A stretch of DNA of 64,000 bases, taken from assembly GCF_024502345.1 (NCBI RefSeq), contig NZ_JALDNN010000001.1, one strand, 5' to 3'. The translations under genes and the position numbers were made by a program. Position 1 is the first letter of the stretch. Each line of letters opens with the position of its first letter. This DNA is from Escherichia coli. Its GTDB lineage: Bacteria; Pseudomonadota; Gammaproteobacteria; Enterobacterales; Enterobacteriaceae. This document shows, piece by piece, positions 4,054-40,482 of the stretch. The notes beneath the pieces are model-generated. The model searched no databases, was not told the DNA's origin, and was given only the letters and a program-made list of their open reading frames with translations.

Positions 4054-5110
4054 GGCTTTGTTGAATAAATCGAACTTTTGCTGAGTTGAAGGATCAGATC
4101 ACGTATCTTCCCGACAACGCAGACCGTTCCGTGGCAAAGCAAAAGTTCAAAATCACCAACTGGCCCACCTACAATAAAGCCCTCATCAACCGTGGCTCCA
4201 TAACTTTCTGGCTGGATGATGAAGCTATTCAGGCCTGGTATGAGTCAGCAACACCTTCTTCACGAGGCAGACCTCAGCGCTATTCTGACCTTGCCATCAC
4301 GACTGTGCTGGTCATTAAACGCGTATTCAGGCTGACCCTGCGCGCTGCGCAGGGCTTTATTGATTCCATTTTTTCTCTGATGAACGTTCCGCTACGCTGC
4401 CCGGATTACAGCTGTGTCAGCAGGCGGGCAAAGTCGGTTAATGTCAGTTTCAAAACGCCCACCCGGGGTGAAATCGCACACCTGGTAATTGATTCCACCG
4501 GGCTGAAGGTCTTCGGTGAAGGCGAGTGGAAAGTCAAAAAGCATGGCCAGGAACGCCGCCGTATCTGGCGTAAGCTGCATCTCGCCGTTGACAGTAAAAC
4601 ACATGAAATCATCTGCGCTGACCTGTCGCTGAACAACGTTACGGACTCAGAGGCCTTCCCCGGGTTAATCCGGCAAACCCACCGGAAAATCAGGTCAGCC
4701 GCCGCCGATGGCGCTTACGATACCCGGCTATGTCACGATGAACTGCGGCGTAAGAAAATCAGCGCGCTTATCCCTCCCCGAAAAGGTGCGGGTTACTGGC
4801 CCGGTGAATATGCAGACCGTAACCGTGCAGTGGCTAATCAGCGAATGACCGGGAGTAATGCGCGGTGGAAATGGACAACAGATTACAACCGTCGCTCGAT
4901 AGCGGAAACGGCGATGTACCGGGTAAAACAGCTGTTCGGGGGTTCACTGACACTGCGTGACTACGATGGTCAGGTTGCAGAGGCTATGGCCCTGGTACGA
5001 GCGCTGAACAAAATGACGAAAGCAGGTATGCCTGAAAGCGTGCGTATTGCCTGAAAACACAACCCGCTACGGGGGAGACTTACCCGAAATCTGATTTATT
5101 CAACAAAGCC
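4054..5110 (+). mobile_element. IS903-family (IS5 superfamily) insertion sequence, 1057 bp, copy 1
   Basis: 18-bp terminal inverted repeats GGCTTTGTTGAATAAATC at both ends; 1057-bp length matches IS903; identical second copy at 52638..53694; no 9-bp target-site duplication. Confidence 0.85.
4131..5054 (+). CDS. IS903-family DDE transposase (307 aa from GTG; the ORF track extends to 4086)
   Basis: ORF fills the IS; IS5-family transposase-like sequence (…NWPTYNKALINRGSITFWLDDEAIQAWY…); GTG start inferred from the 307-aa IS903 transposase length. Confidence 0.8.
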   Translation: MAKQKFKITNWPTYNKALINRGSITFWLDDEAIQAWYESATPSSRGRPQRYSDLAITTVLVIKRVFRLTLRAAQGFIDSIFSLMNVPLRCPDYSCVSRRAKSVNVSFKTPTRGEIAHLVIDSTGLKVFGEGEWKVKKHGQERRRIWRKLHLAVDSKTHEIICADLSLNNVTDSEAFPGLIRQTHRKIRSAAADGAYDTRLCHDELRRKKISALIPPRKGAGYWPGEYADRNRAVANQRMTGSNARWKWTTDYNRRSIAETAMYRVKQLFGGSLTLRDYDGQVAEAMALVRALNKMTKAGMPESVRIA

Positions 5111-5483
5111 TATGCAAGGAGTATTTGATCATGTATAAGCAATAAAAACAGCTTCAGGAAATAAGGAATATCGCAATTTTTAAACATAAAATGCGAATCG
5201 TTCAATACAAAAAAGCAGCGTTGCGTAATCTTTCCCTGATTAAATACGCTACTGCCCTACCCTGATGACATGATCTGCACTGCACTATCATATAGACATG
5301 TTTCTCAACATGCGAAAAGATGTTTTATTTTCGGATTATATTAAATTGATATTTCATATAAAAAATGAAATTACATCAATCATATAAATAATTGTACCAA
5401 CTTTAATTACTATTCATAGCAAACAAATGGATATCCAGTTAACTACGCCAGTGATTCATTAACATTAACCTCCGGCATTATTG

Positions 5484-6101
5484 TTAAATAATGACATTCC
5501 TTTTTAATACTTCTTGTAATTTCGGTAACTGACATACAGCATCAGCAATCGCACTGATATTCGTGGCATTATCCTGAAACCATTCATGCCCAGGCCCCCA
5601 TGTACGCATAGTGCAAAGATAACAGTCCACCAGCGTTAGTTGCTCACCAAACGCATAAGGTTCAGCAGTGAGCTGCGAATTCAGCCAGATATAAAGCGAT
5701 TTTCGATATTCAATAACATTCTTCTTTAACTGTTCAGGTGCGTCAGGAGCCCAACGCTCAGGGTAATCGGCGAAAGTGAATGTTGGATAGATATTAGCAA
5801 CCAGCCAGACCAATAGCCGTTGAAACTGCTGGCGTTCGGTGCGCCCAACCGGTGGCGCAAGGTCCGGGCGACGATCGAGAACCATCAATGCAATCGCCGC
5901 TGTCTCCGTCATAATCTCGTCATTTTCCAATGCCAGTGTCGGAACCTGACACAACGGGTTCAGGGTTTTCAATAACTCGCGTGAAGCTCCCTCGTGGTCA
6001 AAACCACTGACATCAACGAACTGATAAGGAATATCAGCCAGTGTTAGCATCAGCTCACTGATTGTAGAGCCCCATCCGGGTACGCCATACACCTTAATCA
6101 T
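5484..6101 (-). CDS. yncG: Glutathione S-transferase homolog
   Basis: 205-aa ORF with GST-like N-terminus; position next to ansP. Confidence 0.8.
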   Translation of the reverse strand: MIKVYGVPGWGSTISELMLTLADIPYQFVDVSGFDHEGASRELLKTLNPLCQVPTLALENDEIMTETAAIALMVLDRRPDLAPPVGRTERQQFQRLLVWLVANIYPTFTFADYPERWAPDAPEQLKKNVIEYRKSLYIWLNSQLTAEPYAFGEQLTLVDCYLCTMRTWGPGHEWFQDNATNISAIADAVCQLPKLQEVLKRNVII

Positions 6102-9282: not shown

Positions 9283-11385
9283 ATGAAGATTTTTTCCGTC
9301 CGACAGACCGTTTTGCCCGCACTGCTTGTCCTTTCCCCCGTTGTTTTTGCCGCTGATGAACAGACCATGATTGTCAGTGCCGCGCCGCAGGTGGTTTCAG
9401 AACTGGATACCCCTGCAGCAGTAAGCGTGGTGGATGGCGAGGAGATGCGCCTGGCAACACCGCGCATTAACTTGTCCGAATCACTGACCGGCGTGCCTGG
9501 TTTGCAGGTACAAAACCGGCAGAACTATGCGCAAGATTTACAGCTGTCGATTCGCGGATTTGGCTCCCGTTCCACTTACGGAATTCGCGGTATTCGCCTG
9601 TATGTGGACGGTATTCCCGCCACCATGCCCGACGGGCAAGGGCAAACATCCAACATCGATTTAAGCAGTGTGCAAAATGTGGAAGTGCTGCGTGGCCCCT
9701 TCTCTGCCCTGTATGGCAACGCGTCTGGCGGTGTAATGAATGTCACCACCCAGACCGGACAACAGCCACCAACCATTGAAGCCAGTAGTTACTACGGCAG
9801 TTTTGGCAGCTGGCGCTATGGGCTGAAAGCAACGGGCGCAACGGGAGACGGCACACAGCCCGGCGATGTCGATTACACTGTCTCAACCACGCGTTTTACG
9901 ACACACGGCTATCGTGACCATAGTGGCGCACAGAAAAATTTAGCCAATGCCAAACTGGGCGTACGCATTGATGAAGCCAGCAAATTAAGCCTGATTTTCA
10001 ATAGCGTGGATATCAAAGCAGATGACCCAGGTGGGCTAACCAAAGCAGAATGGAAGGCGAATCCACAACAAGCGCCTCGTGCAGAACAGTACGACACGCG
10101 AAAAACCATCAAGCAAACTCAGGCTGGGTTGCGCTATGAACGTAGCCTGAGTTCGCGGGATGATATGAGTATGATGATGTATGCCGGAGAGCGAGAAACG
10201 ACCCAGTACCAGTCAATACCCATGGCACCACAACTTAACCCGTCACATGCGGGCGGCGTGATTACCCTGCAACGCCATTACCAGGGAATAGACAGCCGCT
10301 GGACACACCGTGGTGAACTGGGCGTTCCGGTCACGTTCACTACCGGCCTGAACTACGAAAACATGAGTGAAAACCGCAAGGGCTACAATAACTTCCGCCT
10401 GAATAGCGGCATGCCGGAGTACGGGCAAAAAGGTGAGTTGCGTCGCGACGAACGCAATCTGATGTGGAACATCGATCCCTATTTACAGACGCAGTGGCAG
10501 CTGAGCGAAAAACTGTCGCTGGATGCTGGCGTGCGCTACAGCTCCGTGTGGTTTGATTCCAACGATTATTACGTTACTCCGGGTAACGGCGATGACAGCG
10601 GTGATGCCAGTTATCACAAATGGCTACCTGCCGGTTCGTTAAAATATGCAATGACCGATGCCTGGAATATCTATCTGGCAGCCGGGCGTGGTTTTGAAAC
10701 GCCGACGATTAATGAGCTGTCTTATCGTGCTGATGGGCAAAGCGGTATGAACTTTGGTTTAAAACCATCCACCAACGATACAATTGAGATCGGCAGTAAA
10801 ACGCGTATTGGTGATGGGCTGCTTAGTCTCGCATTGTTTCAGACCGACACCGATGATGAAATTGTTGTCGATAGCAGTAGCGGTGGGCGTACGACTTACA
10901 AAAATGCCGGAAAGACCCGTCGTCAAGGCGCTGAACTGGCATGGGATCAACGTTTCGCGGGAGATTTTCGCGTAAACGCGTCCTGGACCTGGCTTGATGC
11001 GACCTATCGCAGCAATGTTTGCAACGAACAGGATTGTAACGGTAATCGGATGCCAGGGATCGCCCGTAATATGGGCTTTGCGTCGATAGGTTATGTACCG
11101 GAAGATGGTTGGTATGCAGGCACGGAAGCGCGTTATATGGGCGATATTATGGCAGATGATGAAAATACGGCAAAAGCGCCGTCTTATACTCTCGTCGGCT
11201 TATTCACCGGGTATAAATACAATTACCACAATTTAACTGTGGATTTATTTGGTCGTGTCGATAATTTATTCGATAAAGAATACGTTGGTTCTGTCATTGT
11301 CAATGAGTCAAACGGGCGATATTACGAACCTGCGCCCGGACGAAATTATGGTGTCGGCATGAATATTGCGTGGAGATTTGAGTAA
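9283..11385 (+). CDS. yncD: TonB-dependent outer membrane receptor
   Basis: 700-aa ORF with signal peptide, plug and beta-barrel features, C-terminal aromatic residue (…AWRFE). Confidence 0.9.
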   Translation: MKIFSVRQTVLPALLVLSPVVFAADEQTMIVSAAPQVVSELDTPAAVSVVDGEEMRLATPRINLSESLTGVPGLQVQNRQNYAQDLQLSIRGFGSRSTYGIRGIRLYVDGIPATMPDGQGQTSNIDLSSVQNVEVLRGPFSALYGNASGGVMNVTTQTGQQPPTIEASSYYGSFGSWRYGLKATGATGDGTQPGDVDYTVSTTRFTTHGYRDHSGAQKNLANAKLGVRIDEASKLSLIFNSVDIKADDPGGLTKAEWKANPQQAPRAEQYDTRKTIKQTQAGLRYERSLSSRDDMSMMMYAGERETTQYQSIPMAPQLNPSHAGGVITLQRHYQGIDSRWTHRGELGVPVTFTTGLNYENMSENRKGYNNFRLNSGMPEYGQKGELRRDERNLMWNIDPYLQTQWQLSEKLSLDAGVRYSSVWFDSNDYYVTPGNGDDSGDASYHKWLPAGSLKYAMTDAWNIYLAAGRGFETPTINELSYRADGQSGMNFGLKPSTNDTIEIGSKTRIGDGLLSLALFQTDTDDEIVVDSSSGGRTTYKNAGKTRRQGAELAWDQRFAGDFRVNASWTWLDATYRSNVCNEQDCNGNRMPGIARNMGFASIGYVPEDGWYAGTEARYMGDIMADDENTAKAPSYTLVGLFTGYKYNYHNLTVDLFGRVDNLFDKEYVGSVIVNESNGRYYEPAPGRNYGVGMNIAWRFE

Positions 11386-11393
11386 TTACCTTG

Positions 11394-11420
11394 AGGCCCG
11401 GTATTTGCCGGGCATTTACT
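11394..11420. terminator. Hairpin between convergent yncD and mcbR
   Basis: GCCCGG/CCGGGC stem with 6-nt loop followed by ATTT. Confidence 0.4.
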
Positions 11421-12086
11421 TTAACGATTGTATTGCTGGTATAAAATAGCAATATTTTGTTGCATAATTTCAGCAAGACAATGTCTGCATCCCTCTTTGT
11501 CTTTTGCTTTTAACGCAGCGAGTAACAGATGATAGTTTTCTATATGCTCCCGTAATTCCGCTGGATTAATCGCTTCATAGAGATAATGTAAACCAGGCCC
11601 CATCCTGACCCACAGTTGCTCAATCATCTCACACAGGATGGGCATATTCGAGCGATGATAAATCGCTAAGCGAAATAGCCTGTTTACATTAATGATTTGT
11701 TCCATGTCGCCCTTTTCTTGCGCCTGCTGTAATTTCTCGAGCAATTCCTGGAGTTCCGCCAGGTCTGGCGGGGTGAGGTTTTCAACAGCCAGAGTAACTG
11801 CCATTAATTCCAGTTCGTAGCGGATCCGATTGATTTCGTCTAATTGACGTTTCCCCACTTCCGGAACTGTAAATGCTTGCGCTGGTGCGACAGAAAGCGC
11901 ATTCACCGAAACCAGACGTAATAATGCTTCACGCACAGGTGTAAAACTCATACCTAATTGCTCCGCCAGATTTTTAGTAATCAGGCGTGCGCCAGGTTTT
12001 AGTGCGCCAATACTAAGCTGATGTTTCAGGTCGTTCTCAACCTGCAGAGTCAAACTGACATGTTTCATTTTTTCCGTTCCAGGCAT
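11421..12086 (-). CDS. mcbR: GntR-family transcriptional regulator McbR (YncC)
   Basis: ORF with N-terminal HTH (GntR-like) and FCD-like C-terminus; start taken at MPGTEK (221 aa). Confidence 0.8.
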   Translation of the reverse strand: MPGTEKMKHVSLTLQVENDLKHQLSIGALKPGARLITKNLAEQLGMSFTPVREALLRLVSVNALSVAPAQAFTVPEVGKRQLDEINRIRYELELMAVTLAVENLTPPDLAELQELLEKLQQAQEKGDMEQIINVNRLFRLAIYHRSNMPILCEMIEQLWVRMGPGLHYLYEAINPAELREHIENYHLLLAALKAKDKEGCRHCLAEIMQQNIAILYQQYNR

Positions 12087-15249: not shown

Positions 15250-15271
15250 TGTAGTGATTTTGCACGCAGCA

Positions 15272-15306
15272 CGTACTGTCAGAGAAATCAACTCTCTGAC
15301 AGTACG
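15272..15306. terminator. 13-bp perfect-stem hairpin downstream of yncL
   Basis: CGTACTGTCAGAG-(9-nt loop)-CTCTGACAGTACG, 23 nt after yncL stop; no clear T-tract. Confidence 0.35.
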
Positions 15307-15650
15307 CAAGATCTTCTCATACTCTCCAGGTTTACAACATTATCCTTAATATTTACTTCTTTTTGCTGGCATCTACATTGAAATGAGTAGAAAACATCCC
15401 CCTACTGTCGTCTATACAAACAGCTTACTGATTCAAAGGGAATCTTGTTTTCACATTTTTCTATCATGAATACTTTATACGCGCGGGAGTCTATAAATGC
15501 TTTATACTTTCAAGGAATAACGCAAATATAAAAAGATGGCGTAAAGTATATGCATGGCAGGATGTTTGCAACCTCCTTCATGACGCTGCCCCATTGAAAT
15601 TGCAAACCCCGCCCTGGTTATCTTGCCCATTTATCATGCAAAACAGATAA

Positions 15651-16460
15651 TTATAGGCCTCTGAATACCTCAGAAAGATTGAATTTTTTATAGTCCCTCT
15701 CTTGAATATTTCCATTTGAAATCAATCGATTCATCTCTTCAACAAAATAATTTATATCATCACACTTGTTATTATCCGGAAGATCTGAGTAGTTATAATT
15801 CCACCATTTTATTCTCAACAGTTCATCAATAACATTTGAATCAAACCTAAATCTGATTATTTTTGCAGGAACTCCTGCAACTATGGCATATGGGGGCACA
15901 TCTTTGGTAACAACGGAATTGGCAGCAATAACAGCACCATCACCTATTGTGATGCCACCTTTCAATACAACATCATTTCCTATCCAGACATCATTTCCTA
16001 TAATCGGATTTTCAGGTTTTGTAATGAATGGTTTCAATGTCCAGCTACGTTCAAACTCACTCATAGCAAACTTATCAAATTCACCGTTATAAGTCATCAT
16101 GTGAGTAGTAAAACGATTCAAAGAATGATTTCCACCCATTATTTTTACATTTGATGCAATACTACAAAATCGACCTATACGTATATTCCCTGAAAAATGA
16201 CAGGTCGGAAATGAAAAAGCGCCGACACTGGAGAAATTTTTTACAGGCATTGTTGAATATTCTTCAGCAATAACATTATCTTCAATTGTTATCTTGTCAC
16301 CTTTTGAGAAAAGAAATAAATTCCTTTCTTTATACGACTTCTTCCCCTTATGATTTAAAAAGATTTTATTATCCATACAAAACTCAAAGTGTTTTTTCGT
16401 CCATCTGAAGGTAAGGGGTTTATTTTTATCTTCCGTGAATTTGTACAATTGAACTTTCAT
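15651..16460 (-). CDS. Hexapeptide-repeat (left-handed beta-helix) acetyltransferase, Vat/CatB-like xenobiotic acetyltransferase family, with N- and C-terminal extensions
   Basis: 269-aa ORF; motif …IIGNDVWIGNDVVLKGGITIGDGAVIAANSVVTKDVPPYAIVAGVPAKIIRFRF… typical of streptogramin/chloramphenicol acetyltransferases; gene and flanks are markedly AT-rich relative to neighbours. Confidence 0.75.
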   Translation of the reverse strand: MKVQLYKFTEDKNKPLTFRWTKKHFEFCMDNKIFLNHKGKKSYKERNLFLFSKGDKITIEDNVIAEEYSTMPVKNFSSVGAFSFPTCHFSGNIRIGRFCSIASNVKIMGGNHSLNRFTTHMMTYNGEFDKFAMSEFERSWTLKPFITKPENPIIGNDVWIGNDVVLKGGITIGDGAVIAANSVVTKDVPPYAIVAGVPAKIIRFRFDSNVIDELLRIKWWNYNYSDLPDNNKCDDINYFVEEMNRLISNGNIQERDYKKFNLSEVFRGL

Positions 16461-16669
16461 TGTTAATACTTCTACTTATAAAGTATTAGTTTAATAACGA
16501 TACTCTAAAGCCTTATGCTAATCAACTGTGACAGGATGAAAAATCGCCATCAAACATTTAGCCTAATTTTTACGCTAGTTATTAATGTAATCATTCTAAT
16601 ACTTAACCGCCATTAAACTCAGAACCGAAAACGATAGTGGCCGTCCTATAACAGCCACTAACATCTAAC

Positions 16670-18094
16670 TTAATGTTTAACCATGACGTGGCGGACGACG
16701 GTGTAATCCTCCAGCCCATAAAGTGACATATCCTTGCCGTAACCAGAAAGTTTCTGCCCACCGTGCGGCATTTCACTTACCAGCATGAAATGGGTATTGA
16801 CCCAGGTACAACCATATTGCAGTCGTGCGCTGACGCGATGCGCCCTGCCCACATCTTTCGTCCATACCGAAGATGCAAGTCCGTACTGGCTGTCATTCGC
16901 CCAGTTCACCACCTGTTCTTCGTTGTCGAAGAGCGTAACACTCACTACTGGACCAAATACCTCTTTTTGCACGATGGCATCGTCCTGTAATGCGCCAGCC
17001 AGCAGCGTCGGCTCATAGTAATAGCCATTACCCTTGCGCTTTTCACCGCCAGTGATCACTTTGATGTGCCCTGTCGCTTTCGCCTCTTCTACTGCCTTGC
17101 TGACGCGTTCGAGATGCGCCAGCGAGCTTAAAGGTCCAAGCTCCGTAGACTCGTCATCCGGCGCACCAGATTTTAACGTTGCCACTGCAGCACCGAGTTT
17201 TTCCACCAACGTATCGTAAATGCCTTTTTGCGCGTAGATCCGACAAGCCGCAGTACAATCCTGTCCGGCATTGTAATAGCCAAATGTACGTACACCTTCG
17301 ACCACTGCTTCAATATCCGCATCATCAAAAACAATCACTGGCGCTTTGCCACCAAGTTCCATATGAGTTCGCTTAATGGACGGCGCGGTATGGCTGATGA
17401 TGTGCTCGCCGGTGGCGATAGAGCCCGTCAGCGACACCATCCGCACTTTGGGATGACCGGTCAGCGGATCGCCCACCGTTTTGCCTCTGCCAAACAGCAC
17501 ATTAATCACGCCTGCCGGGAAGATATCTTTCGCCAGCCCTGCCAACTTCAACGCGGTCAGCGGGGTAATTTCTGATGGTTTAAGCACTACGCAGTTCCCT
17601 GCCGCCAGCGCCGGAGCAAGTTTCCACGCTGCCATCATCAGCGGATAATTCCACGGTGCGATAGAAGCCACGACCCCCAACGGATCGCGACGGATCATCG
17701 AAGTATGACCTTCAAGATATTCACCTGCCGCCAGACCATTCAGACAGCGCGCCGCACCCGCGAAAAAGCGAAAAACATCGACAATCGCCGGGATTTCATC
17801 ATTGAACGCACTATGCAGCGGTTTGCCACAATTACGGGACTCCAGTTCGGCAAAAACCTGACCATTTTCTTCGATTACATCAGCCAGTTTCAGCAGACAT
17901 TCCGCACGCACTTTCGGCGTGGTTTGCCCCCATTCGGCAAATGCTGCATCTGCCGCGCGCACAGCAGCATCGACCTGCTCTGCGGATGCCTCGGCAATCT
18001 CCAGTAAAACGTCCCCCGTTGCCGGACTATAGACAGGCTGTTTTTCCCCTTCGCCGCTAACCAGTTCTCCGTTAATCAGTAACTTATGTTGCAT
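16670..18094 (-). CDS. patD: Gamma-aminobutyraldehyde dehydrogenase
   Basis: 474-aa aldehyde dehydrogenase ORF; conserved position. Confidence 0.9.
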
Positions 18095-39455: not shown

Positions 39456-39734
39456 TACCGTTGTCTCTCGTCCAGGTTTACTCCTGATAGAAAGTCATCG
39501 GCACTTGACGGTAATTACTTATGACCAAAAACCTCTTTGCGTCACATTTTTACAACAATTATTGCAGAGAAAATTAATGCTATTGGAATGAAGAGAGTAA
39601 CGAATGGCTAAACTGGCTAACCCGAATGACGAAAAATTCTGGAAAACAGCACGCAATTTCGTGAAGTGATTATTTTCGTCCCTAAGGAAACCTCATAGGA
39701 TGCCTGCGGGTGCCTGAGACTTTCTGTTTTCAGG

Positions 39735-39794
39735 CTAACCGGGAATCAGAAAGACGAAGGCCCCGACCGATATTTCTATCAACCGAGGCCAACG

Positions 39795-39805
<11 letters not shown>
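39735..39805 (-). ncRNA. sokB: Putative SokB antisense RNA (position approximate)
   Basis: By analogy with hok/sok loci, the antisense RNA overlaps the mok translation-initiation region; boundaries not determined from sequence. Confidence 0.3.
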
Positions 39806-40003
<198 letters not shown>

Positions 40004-40418: not shown

Positions 40419-40482
40419 CTTCCGATGTAGACCCGTATTCTTCGCCTGTACCACGGGTCGGTTTTAGTACAGGCGTTTTCTT
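40419..40482 (+). ncRNA. rydC: RydC small RNA (64 nt)
   Basis: CTTCCGATGTAGACCCGTATTCTTCGCCTGTACCACGGGTCGGTTTTAGTACAGGCGTTTTCTT matches recalled RydC; TATAAT -10 at 40406-40411; intrinsic terminator at 3' end. Confidence 0.7.

Follow-up and report, generated by a model that had tools for sequence, protein, structure and literature searches.

An old single-gene islet at the yncL-patD site of Escherichia coli encodes a xenobiotic-acetyltransferase-fold protein with relatives in glycan loci and prophages

A 64,000-nucleotide stretch of Escherichia coli contig NZ_JALDNN010000001.1 (assembly GCF_024502345.1), referred to here in its whole length as the window, carries an islet of low guanine-plus-cytosine (GC) content between yncL and patD. 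The islet holds a single intact open reading frame (ORF) that encodes a 269-residue protein of the xenobiotic acetyltransferase (XAT) class, a member of an uncharacterised subfamily that stands apart from Vat, CatB and ApmA. The islet is an old resident of the chromosome and is kept under selection. The protein is a predicted soluble acetyl-CoA-dependent O-acetyltransferase, and we consider the chances about even that it acts on a sugar hydroxyl, either in an envelope glycan or in the precursor of one, with a function of the conversion type. Inactivation of streptogramins or chloramphenicol is less likely than glycan modification. The gene is already annotated in thousands of genomes, yet it is uncharacterised, and our literature search found no paper that mentions it or cites its WP accessions.

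The gene order around the islet is K-12-like (curA-mnaT-ydcZ-ydcY-ortT-yncL-islet-patD-ydcV-ydcU). As an earlier reading made from the sequence alone had stated, yncL and patD are near-adjacent in K-12, where their stop codons are 96 bp apart, compared to 1,420 bp in the window. The insertion is thus 1,324 bp long, which is also the period of a direct repeat, with the single intact ORF inside. The GC content of the islet is 0.342, compared to a window mean of 0.499 (standard deviation 0.035; z = -4.5), and it is the lowest 1.3-kb stretch of the 64 kb. The ORF also stands apart clearly from the neighbouring genes in the GC content of third codon positions (GC3; 0.285 vs 0.52-0.59) and in the rare codons AGA, AGG, ATA and CTA (7.0 vs 0.4-2.0 per 100 codons). 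The AT-rich stretch of about 1.4 kb with one 269-residue gene is therefore as the sequence-only reading had described it, and its proposal of horizontal acquisition is supported: the DNA is compositionally foreign, absent from K-12 and present or absent among strains at one fixed site, although the acquisition is old and not recent.

Neither a transposase nor an integrase, in agreement with the sequence-only reading, nor a tRNA was found in or beside the islet, which thereby lacks the mobility genes or tRNA of a horizontally transferred islet; a tRNA as insertion target was rejected on this ground. A search for terminal inverted repeats and for the structure of an insertion sequence (IS) or a miniature inverted-repeat transposable element gave only weak AT-rich matches. 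The islet has no Rfam match down to E = 1 and no PADLOC defence-system match, so that a non-coding RNA and a component of a defence system were rejected as well. Flanking direct repeats had not been obvious to the earlier reader, yet a 20-bp imperfect repeat bounds the insertion, its two copies being identical at 15 of 20 positions with an 11-mer core of CTTAAT[A/G]TTTA. The islet is an ordinary, typical accessory locus with no sign of a new mechanism.

The ORF contains both motifs noticed at first sight, IGNDVWIG and PAKIIRFRF, and gives a Pfam Hexapep match with E = 2.5e-10. An AlphaFold2 monomer model, built on 36 homologues with a pLDDT (predicted local distance difference test) of 89, consists of a β-helix, an inserted loop with one helix and three C-terminal helices, in addition to a small N-terminal strand-helix segment and a poorly modelled loop. 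Structural similarity search against the PDB using Foldseek revealed VatD, VatA, CatB and PaXAT as the top matches, with a probability of 1.0, followed by ApmA. The XAT architecture (PMC7885111) comprises a left-handed β-helix (LbH) coil into which a loop is inserted, beginning at the catalytic histidine (VatA His87, ApmA His135), and helices at the C-terminus. The E. coli protein presents all three elements. Short strands across residues 56-204 of the model form the left-handed β-helix; the loop (~113-150, with a helix at 128-136) starts at the catalytic histidine; and the helices 208-217, 236-248 and 262-268 make up the C-terminal part, in which the WW motif aligns with that of Vat. His112 aligns with VatD His82 and is invariant in the 36 homologues.

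The oxyanion tyrosine of the class departs from this pattern. In VatA, Tyr42 stabilizes the oxyanion (PMC7885111), and the corresponding residues are Tyr37 in VatD and Tyr102 in ApmA. The aligned residue of the E. coli protein is Thr70, at a position occupied by T, M, S, R or A across the family; the conserved neighbouring Tyr68 might act as a stand-in. Altogether, the XAT fold, the acetyl-CoA cofactor chemistry and the catalytic His112 are well supported. Judging from the fold, the protein probably forms a homotrimer with the acceptor pocket between subunits. It also matches PHROG family 16087, the function label of which reads unknown.

Vat(D)/Vat(A), CatB and PaXAT have the same fold and domain order as the E. 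coli protein, from the LbH coil through the loop at the catalytic histidine to the C-terminal helices. They also have the GNDVWIG and WW motifs in common with it, at an identity of 34-37% over about 190-200 residues. By contrast, the scores against the curated NCBIfam resistance families are far under the cut-offs: 126.8 bits vs 300 for Vat (NF000311), 107.3 vs 350 for CatB (NF000490) and 84 vs 550 for ApmA (NF000084). Membership in any of the three families was rejected for this reason. Of the initial description as a Vat/CatB-like hexapeptide XAT, the fold and the conserved catalytic histidine therefore stand, but the protein is an orthologue of neither Vat nor CatB.

Compared to Vat, the E. 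coli protein differs in several respects beyond the replacement of the oxyanion tyrosine by Thr70. The motif that follows the catalytic histidine is HSLNRFTTHMMTY, compared to HRMDGSTYPFNLF in VatD, and the active-site insert loop exceeds that of Vat(D) by about 14 residues. There are about 33 extra residues at the N-terminus (residue 61 corresponds to VatD 28) and about 22 at the C-terminus; the extensions of about 75 and 60 residues estimated earlier thus shrink considerably when measured relative to Vat(D). In addition, and in contrast to Vat and CatB, nothing connects the E. coli gene with resistance elements. ApmA, an XAT with an extra N-terminal region that has switched substrate class (PMC7885111), is similar in length (274 residues) and has an aligned histidine. 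However, its alignment covers residues 94-257 only, and an ApmA-like N-terminal domain was rejected since nothing aligns before residue 94. Nothing in the E. coli protein corresponds in sequence to the N-terminal domain of ApmA, which spans residues 1-82 with four strands and two helices; the extra N-terminal part of the E. coli protein is instead one strand, one helix and the poorly modelled loop.

Further analysis placed the protein in a large subfamily, with 611 representatives (50% clustering) at E < 1e-30. Its members have a short N-terminal β-α segment, an active-site loop ~14 residues longer than in Vat and a lengthened C-terminal helical tail. The catalytic histidine opens the motif H-P-x-x-R-[F/I]-[T/S]-T...T-Y, in which the E. 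coli protein has H-S at 112-113; the sequence of Vat at this place is H-R-M-D-G-S-T-Y-P-F. The subfamily motifs are common to Campylobacter and Shewanella proteins and absent from Vat. In blastp comparisons with the E. coli protein, a gene of a Shewanella polysaccharide cluster scored 165 bits, C. lari P0106 163, a GT8 fusion 147, a GT2 fusion 144 and C. jejuni P0298 141, compared to 113 for VatD and 110 for Priestia Vat. By this measure, the relatives with an informative gene context (141-165 bits) are nearer than Vat (110-113 bits).

These relatives from further afield (35-45% identity) keep the architecture of the subfamily, and their contexts are rich in glycan genes. The Shewanella relative lies inside a polysaccharide gene cluster, other relatives are fused to GT2 and GT8 glycosyltransferases, and C. 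lari P0106 is the last gene of a cst-neuB-neuC-neuA sialic-acid lipooligosaccharide (LOS) cluster, in which it overlaps its upstream neighbour by 26 nt. A census of 84 genes that flank relatives of 35-50% identity in 16 genomes gave, as the most frequent Pfam families, nine GT2, four GT1, four Polysacc_synt_2 and five flippase genes, in addition to sugar epimerases. NCBIfam and PDB searches provided no name for the C. lari Cst protein or for a GT52 protein of Providencia described below. Among distant members, P0143 (1,081 residues) and P0121 (570 residues) show fusion to two ATP-grasp ligase domains, like those of cyanophycin synthetase and GshAB, or tandem duplication.

The Campylobacter LOS acetyltransferases, C. 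lari P0106 and C. jejuni P0298, have the same N-terminal segment, HP..R[FI][ST]T..TY motif, long loop and extended C-terminal helices as the E. coli protein, at 39-40% identity and 141-163 bits, above Vat. They also bear the same name from the NCBI Prokaryotic Genome Annotation Pipeline (PGAP). P0298 is 60% identical to the C. lari gene and 40% identical to the E. coli protein over 195 residues. P0298 is putatively C. jejuni Orf11, an identity that the source names of its cluster did not confirm. Houliston et al., in 2006, are reported to have characterized Orf11 as a sialate 9-O-acetyltransferase. Their work on Orf11 is cited in PMC8319020 and PMC3513307.

In its sequence, with the N- and C-terminal extensions and the loop motif, the E. 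coli protein is a member of this Orf11-like subfamily. Its gene differs in the linkage to sialic-acid synthesis and sialyltransferase genes: the C. lari gene lies in a sialic-acid operon, whereas genes for sialic acid or glycosyltransferases are missing around the E. coli gene. An identity of 40% to the Campylobacter enzyme does not fix the acceptor. The C. jejuni P0298 cluster contains many shortened forms (137-256 residues) among its 1,560 members, which suggests frequent frameshifted or phase-variable alleles of the LOS acetyltransferase.

In Enterobacterales, the relatives (48-79% identity) are usually lone insertions among unrelated housekeeping genes, as in Citrobacter, Cedecea, Rahnella, Apirhabdus and Enterobacter. 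The nearest copies in protein identity are found in Citrobacter (79%), a Raoultella metagenome-assembled genome (MAG; 77%) and Enterobacter sp. Ag1 (70%), and a search of GTDB species representatives gave no hit in other Escherichia species. The copies in Citrobacter, Raoultella, Cedecea and Enterobacter (70-79% in protein, about 76% in DNA) lie at unrelated loci, and DNA similarity to the copies of other genera is confined to the ORF and about 85 bp upstream. In every host but one, the GC content of the gene is 8-19 points below that of its flanks; the exception is the Providencia prophage, which is AT-rich itself. In Cedecea, Rahnella and Enterobacter sp. Ag1 (L006 4154-5845, L011 5031-6818 and L017 3155-4843, respectively), the homologue lies 150-180 bp downstream of a gene for a methyl-accepting chemotaxis protein; the sensor domains of these proteins differ, being 4HB_MCP in Cedecea and Enterobacter sp. 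Ag1 and dCache_1 in Rahnella. This neighbourhood may be a coincidence or a preferred insertion context.

Other homologues lie in prophages or phage-like elements, repeatedly next to tail-fibre genes. In a Providencia prophage, the homologue is beside a tail-fibre gene and a GT52 glycosyltransferase gene and close to the integrase. In Kluyvera, it directly follows the tail-fibre and tail-fibre-assembly genes of a P2-like prophage, and in Dickeya it adjoins primase- and terminase-like genes. Of two IMG/VR sequences, L059 (51% identity) has it flanked by the tail-fibre and tail-sheath genes, while in L060 (46% identity) it comes immediately after the gene of a 755-residue tail fibre. In P2-like phages, moron position 2, between the tail-fibre gene G and the sheath gene FI, holds neaT in CFT073, which encodes a surface-modifying acyltransferase and has 30% GC (PMC3573123). 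The homologues in moron position 2 or beside tail-fibre genes thus sit like conversion acyltransferases. Moreover, neaT of the CFT073 P2-like prophage and Oac of Sf6 are likewise low-GC, codon-atypical single genes of patchy distribution across genera. However, NeaT and Oac are integral-membrane Acyl_transf_3 proteins of unrelated fold, and the E. coli copy, unlike conversion genes, lies outside any prophage. In two Providencia prophages (L008 8576-9893; L009 8075-10392), the interval between homologue and integrase contains DarT with a NADAR-type partner, or a retron-like pair of reverse transcriptase and AAA ATPase, and looks like a hotspot for defence and moron genes.

A survey of 5,426 complete E. 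coli genomes showed that 1,148-1,158 of them, about one fifth, carry the islet, always at the yncL-patD site; about 1,150 retain at least 80% of it. Many B1 strains and Shiga toxin-producing E. coli (STEC) are carriers, with O111:H8 and O121 STEC among those listed. K-12, B/BL21, NC101, 042 and most O157:H7 genomes are without it. PGAP names the product "CatB-related O-acetyltransferase", and some records say "antibiotic acetyltransferase"; the protein cluster at 90% identity comprises 3,523 sequences, some of them from Shigella flexneri. The alleles fall into two groups, one about 99% and the other about 95% identical to the window in DNA. From one group to the other, the ORF differs by 2.7% (97.3% identical), patD by 4.1% (95.9% identical) and the ydcZ-ortT flank by 3.0%. 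The ratio of non-synonymous to synonymous per-site differences (pN/pS) between E. coli alleles is 0.12-0.20, with pS up to 0.088. Since the divergence of the alleles tracks that of the flanks and pN/pS is in this range, the islet is an old resident under purifying selection and not a recent arrival.

No close copy was found on genuine plasmids, the sole match (96.7%) being a 4.9-Mb replicon labelled as a plasmid, nor in sequenced phages, in whose DNA the similarity does not extend beyond a 93-bp core motif; on these grounds, we rejected plasmid or phage carriage of the E. coli gene. A 1,576-bp contig of a 'Collinsella sp.' MAG (L013, JAIJJM010000727.1) is 99% identical to the islet including its yncL and patD flanks, and is almost certainly mis-binned E. 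coli DNA.

Loss of the islet could be followed as well. We predicted the junction that recombination between the two repeat copies would leave and queried it against the same complete genomes. HH45 and BS-04 match it at 100% over 92 nt, and O157:H7 TR01 and HS-01 match at 96.7% with the crossover elsewhere within the repeat. These are two independent precise deletions with different crossover points within the 20-bp repeat. The flanks of HH45 differ from those of the islet-bearing RM9975 at one of 1,324 and two of 1,415 bases (99.9% identical), and the clean loss is therefore recent. All remaining empty genomes have a K-12-type spacer. In ES1 (H6), Z1323CEC0009 (H73) and cM2a (H90), an IS1 lies inside the acetyltransferase gene or the islet, one of the three having lost most of the islet; these are independent inactivation events. 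Occasional IS1 insertions and precise deletions show that loss of the islet is ongoing.

The present analysis suggests a course of events and a biochemical role. We propose that an old insertion of 1,324 bp took place at the patD 3' end, where an imperfect 20-bp target duplication bounds it, and that it brought in one self-contained gene along with about 85 bp of DNA from upstream of that gene. Acetyl-CoA would be the donor of the acetyl group, and the nucleophile that receives it would be held in the loop pocket where subunits meet, with His112 as the catalytic base. The acceptor would be a sugar hydroxyl of a cell-envelope glycan or of its cytoplasmic precursor, and the function would be of the lysogenic-conversion type, now fixed in the chromosome. 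We favour glycan modification because the glycan-context homologues are closer and because prophage positions adjacent to tail fibres recur; the acceptor class, a sugar hydroxyl, we infer. More tentatively, the orphan clade of Enterobacterales could represent a domesticated former prophage conversion gene that O-acetylates a conserved envelope glycan (lipopolysaccharide core, enterobacterial common antigen or similar) in about one fifth of E. coli, many STEC lineages (O111, O121) among them, with altered adsorption of phages or recognition by the host as the consequence; we regard this extended proposal as unlikely in its full form, and we know of no soluble acetyltransferase for such a glycan.

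Several observations weigh against a glycan acceptor. The strongest is that no glycosyltransferase, sugar-nucleotide or flippase gene adjoins the E. coli gene or its closest relatives (48-79% identity), a solitary setting that lone resistance genes show too. The solved structures nearest to the protein are all of antibiotic-modifying enzymes, and the link to a characterised sialate O-acetyltransferase runs through the putative identity of P0298 with Orf11 and the synteny in C. lari. Moreover, to our knowledge no acetylated glycan is common to carriers of different O-serotypes. No sigma-70-like promoter was found upstream of the acetyltransferase gene, which may therefore be silent.

As the gene stands alone without glycan-pathway neighbours, a stand-alone antibiotic or xenobiotic acetyltransferase stays a serious rival, even if we judge it rather improbable. 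This rival, which goes back to the sequence-only reading, would make the protein a cryptic trimeric XAT whose acceptor is a hydroxyl or amine group in a natural-product antibiotic, perhaps one from a class new to XATs as with apramycin and ApmA, and which confers resistance when expressed. The XAT fold and the conserved catalytic histidine fit such an enzyme, and the best matches among solved structures and NCBIfam resistance families are Vat (127 bits), CatB (107) and ApmA (84). Self-sufficient single-gene islets at different loci in different genera are what detoxification would predict, and ApmA sets the precedent of an XAT with an extra N-terminal region that switches substrate class (PMC7885111). 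Nevertheless, every resistance-family score is less than half of its curated cut-off, the equivalent of VatA Tyr42 and VatD Tyr37 is Thr70 at a variable position, and close copies are absent from genuine plasmids and sequenced phages. These failed cut-offs, the missing oxyanion tyrosine and the glycan-context relatives that outscore Vat make resistance the less likely reading. Compared with the domesticated conversion gene, an XAT that acts on a new class of antibiotics, in the way of ApmA, is a less likely variant. E. coli is intrinsically insensitive to streptogramins, so that resistance to them would be of little advantage, and we know of no recognised chloramphenicol phenotype although about one fifth of E. 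coli carry the gene.

Still less probable is a small-molecule acetyltransferase like LacA or Maa. Its cytoplasmic substrate would be a free sugar that the cell cannot metabolise, or a compound resembling one, perhaps free sialic acid, and acetylation would lead to exclusion or export. The protein is a soluble LbH enzyme whose similarity to LacA, Maa and WbbJ is weaker but still significant, and it is encoded by an orphan gene without partner genes, which would suit this role; in the vicinity of the Citrobacter copy are genes for the uptake of nucleosides and sugars (PNP_UDP_1, MFS, Tsx), and in that of the C. freundii copy glycosyl hydrolase 1, PTS and LacI genes. However, the similarity to LacA and Maa is limited to about 50 residues of the C-terminal coils, the neighbours differ in every genus with no conserved pathway association, and the tail-fibre contexts in prophages are hard to fit with a metabolic role. 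A functionless, decaying remnant, namely the leftover moron of a lost mobile element that is silenced and drifting, is very improbable indeed. Its extreme AT-richness and rare codons, the missing recognisable promoter, the IS1 insertions in a few genomes and the occasional precise deletions would agree with decay. Against it, the 269-residue ORF is intact in the window and in divergent alleles at the pN/pS and pS given above, at least 80% of the islet is kept in about 1,150 complete genomes, and all catalytic and structural invariants are kept.

If glycan modification is correct and the glycan is a shared one at the surface, the gene would create an unrecognised surface heterogeneity between E. 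coli lineages, which could affect phage susceptibility, serology and host interactions. The label "antibiotic acetyltransferase" on a protein that fails every curated resistance-family test calls for caution with annotation-driven resistome calls. In addition, the locus offers a natural example of a single-gene insertion that is cleanly lost via a 20-bp repeat.

Aligning the window with the empty site of K-12, with two further alleles that carry the islet and with the rare empty sites gave the boundaries of the islet (Table 1). The right copy of the repeat holds the patD stop codon (16670-16672), the last two sense codons (16673-16678) and one base of the next codon. The blastn alignments of the islet with loci L003-L005 and L016 reach islet coordinate 1296, which is window position 16545, and the stretch from there to the ORF is probably the promoter and 5' untranslated region of the gene itself, travelling with it. 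The adjoining E. coli-specific spacer is the most divergent segment between E. coli alleles (87%). The non-coding tail at the other end has no ORF of at least 50 residues, no Rfam match and no homology outside E. coli.

Table 1. Features of the yncL-patD interval (window coordinates)
Feature	Coordinates	Strand	Remarks
Hairpin of the convergent yncL-patD spacer	15272-15306		14-bp perfect arms; outside the insertion
13-nt patch CCAGGTTTACAAC	15326-15338		islet-type flank; K-12-type empty site has TACGATCTGCAAT
Left copy of the 20-bp imperfect direct repeat, AACATTATCCTTAATATTTA	15336-15355		decayed duplicate of the patD 3' end
AT-rich non-coding tail 3' of the ORF, 294 bp	15357-15650	-	94-99% conserved among E. 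coli alleles
Acetyltransferase ORF, 269 residues, intact	15651-16460	-	LbH/XAT fold
Upstream region, ~85 bp	16461-16545	-	~76% identity to Citrobacter and Raoultella loci
E. coli-specific AT-rich spacer, right end of the insertion	16546-16659		no homology in other genera
Terminator-like hairpin then T-run, directly downstream of patD	16635-16660	-	11 pairs, tail TCGTTTTCGG
Right copy of the 20-bp direct repeat, AACATCTAACTTAATGTTTA	16660-16679		overlaps the patD 3' end

Two hairpins lie in this interval. The one near yncL, which the sequence-only reading had regarded as the only structural marker of the islet, is real, with a minimum free energy of -24.5 kcal/mol on the plus strand and -28 on the minus strand (z = -6.3 and -4.7, respectively). 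It is also conserved in the K-12 empty site and therefore belongs to the old convergent yncL/patD spacer and not to the insertion, so that it was rejected as a boundary marker; where the islet is present, the stop codon of the acetyltransferase gene is 345 nt upstream of it. The second hairpin (-20.3 kcal/mol, z = -5.2) is supplied by the insertion and replaces the old shared one as the structure next to the patD stop codon. The 13-nt patch next to the left repeat copy differs from the K-12-type sequence at 7 of 13 positions, amid surrounding flanks that are 98-99% identical, and is kept in all islet-bearing alleles and in the precise-deletion genomes.

Elsewhere in the window, two further 1-kb segments, 5001-6000 and 11001-12000, have a lower GC content (0.415 and 0.445) amid values of roughly 0.50-0.55. 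Rfam matches at the gathering score were obtained for the sok antitoxin RNA (111.5 bits; 39708-39859, plus strand) and the small RNA RydC (92.5 bits; 40419-40482, plus strand), consistent with a K-12-like hokB/sokB-rydC neighbourhood.

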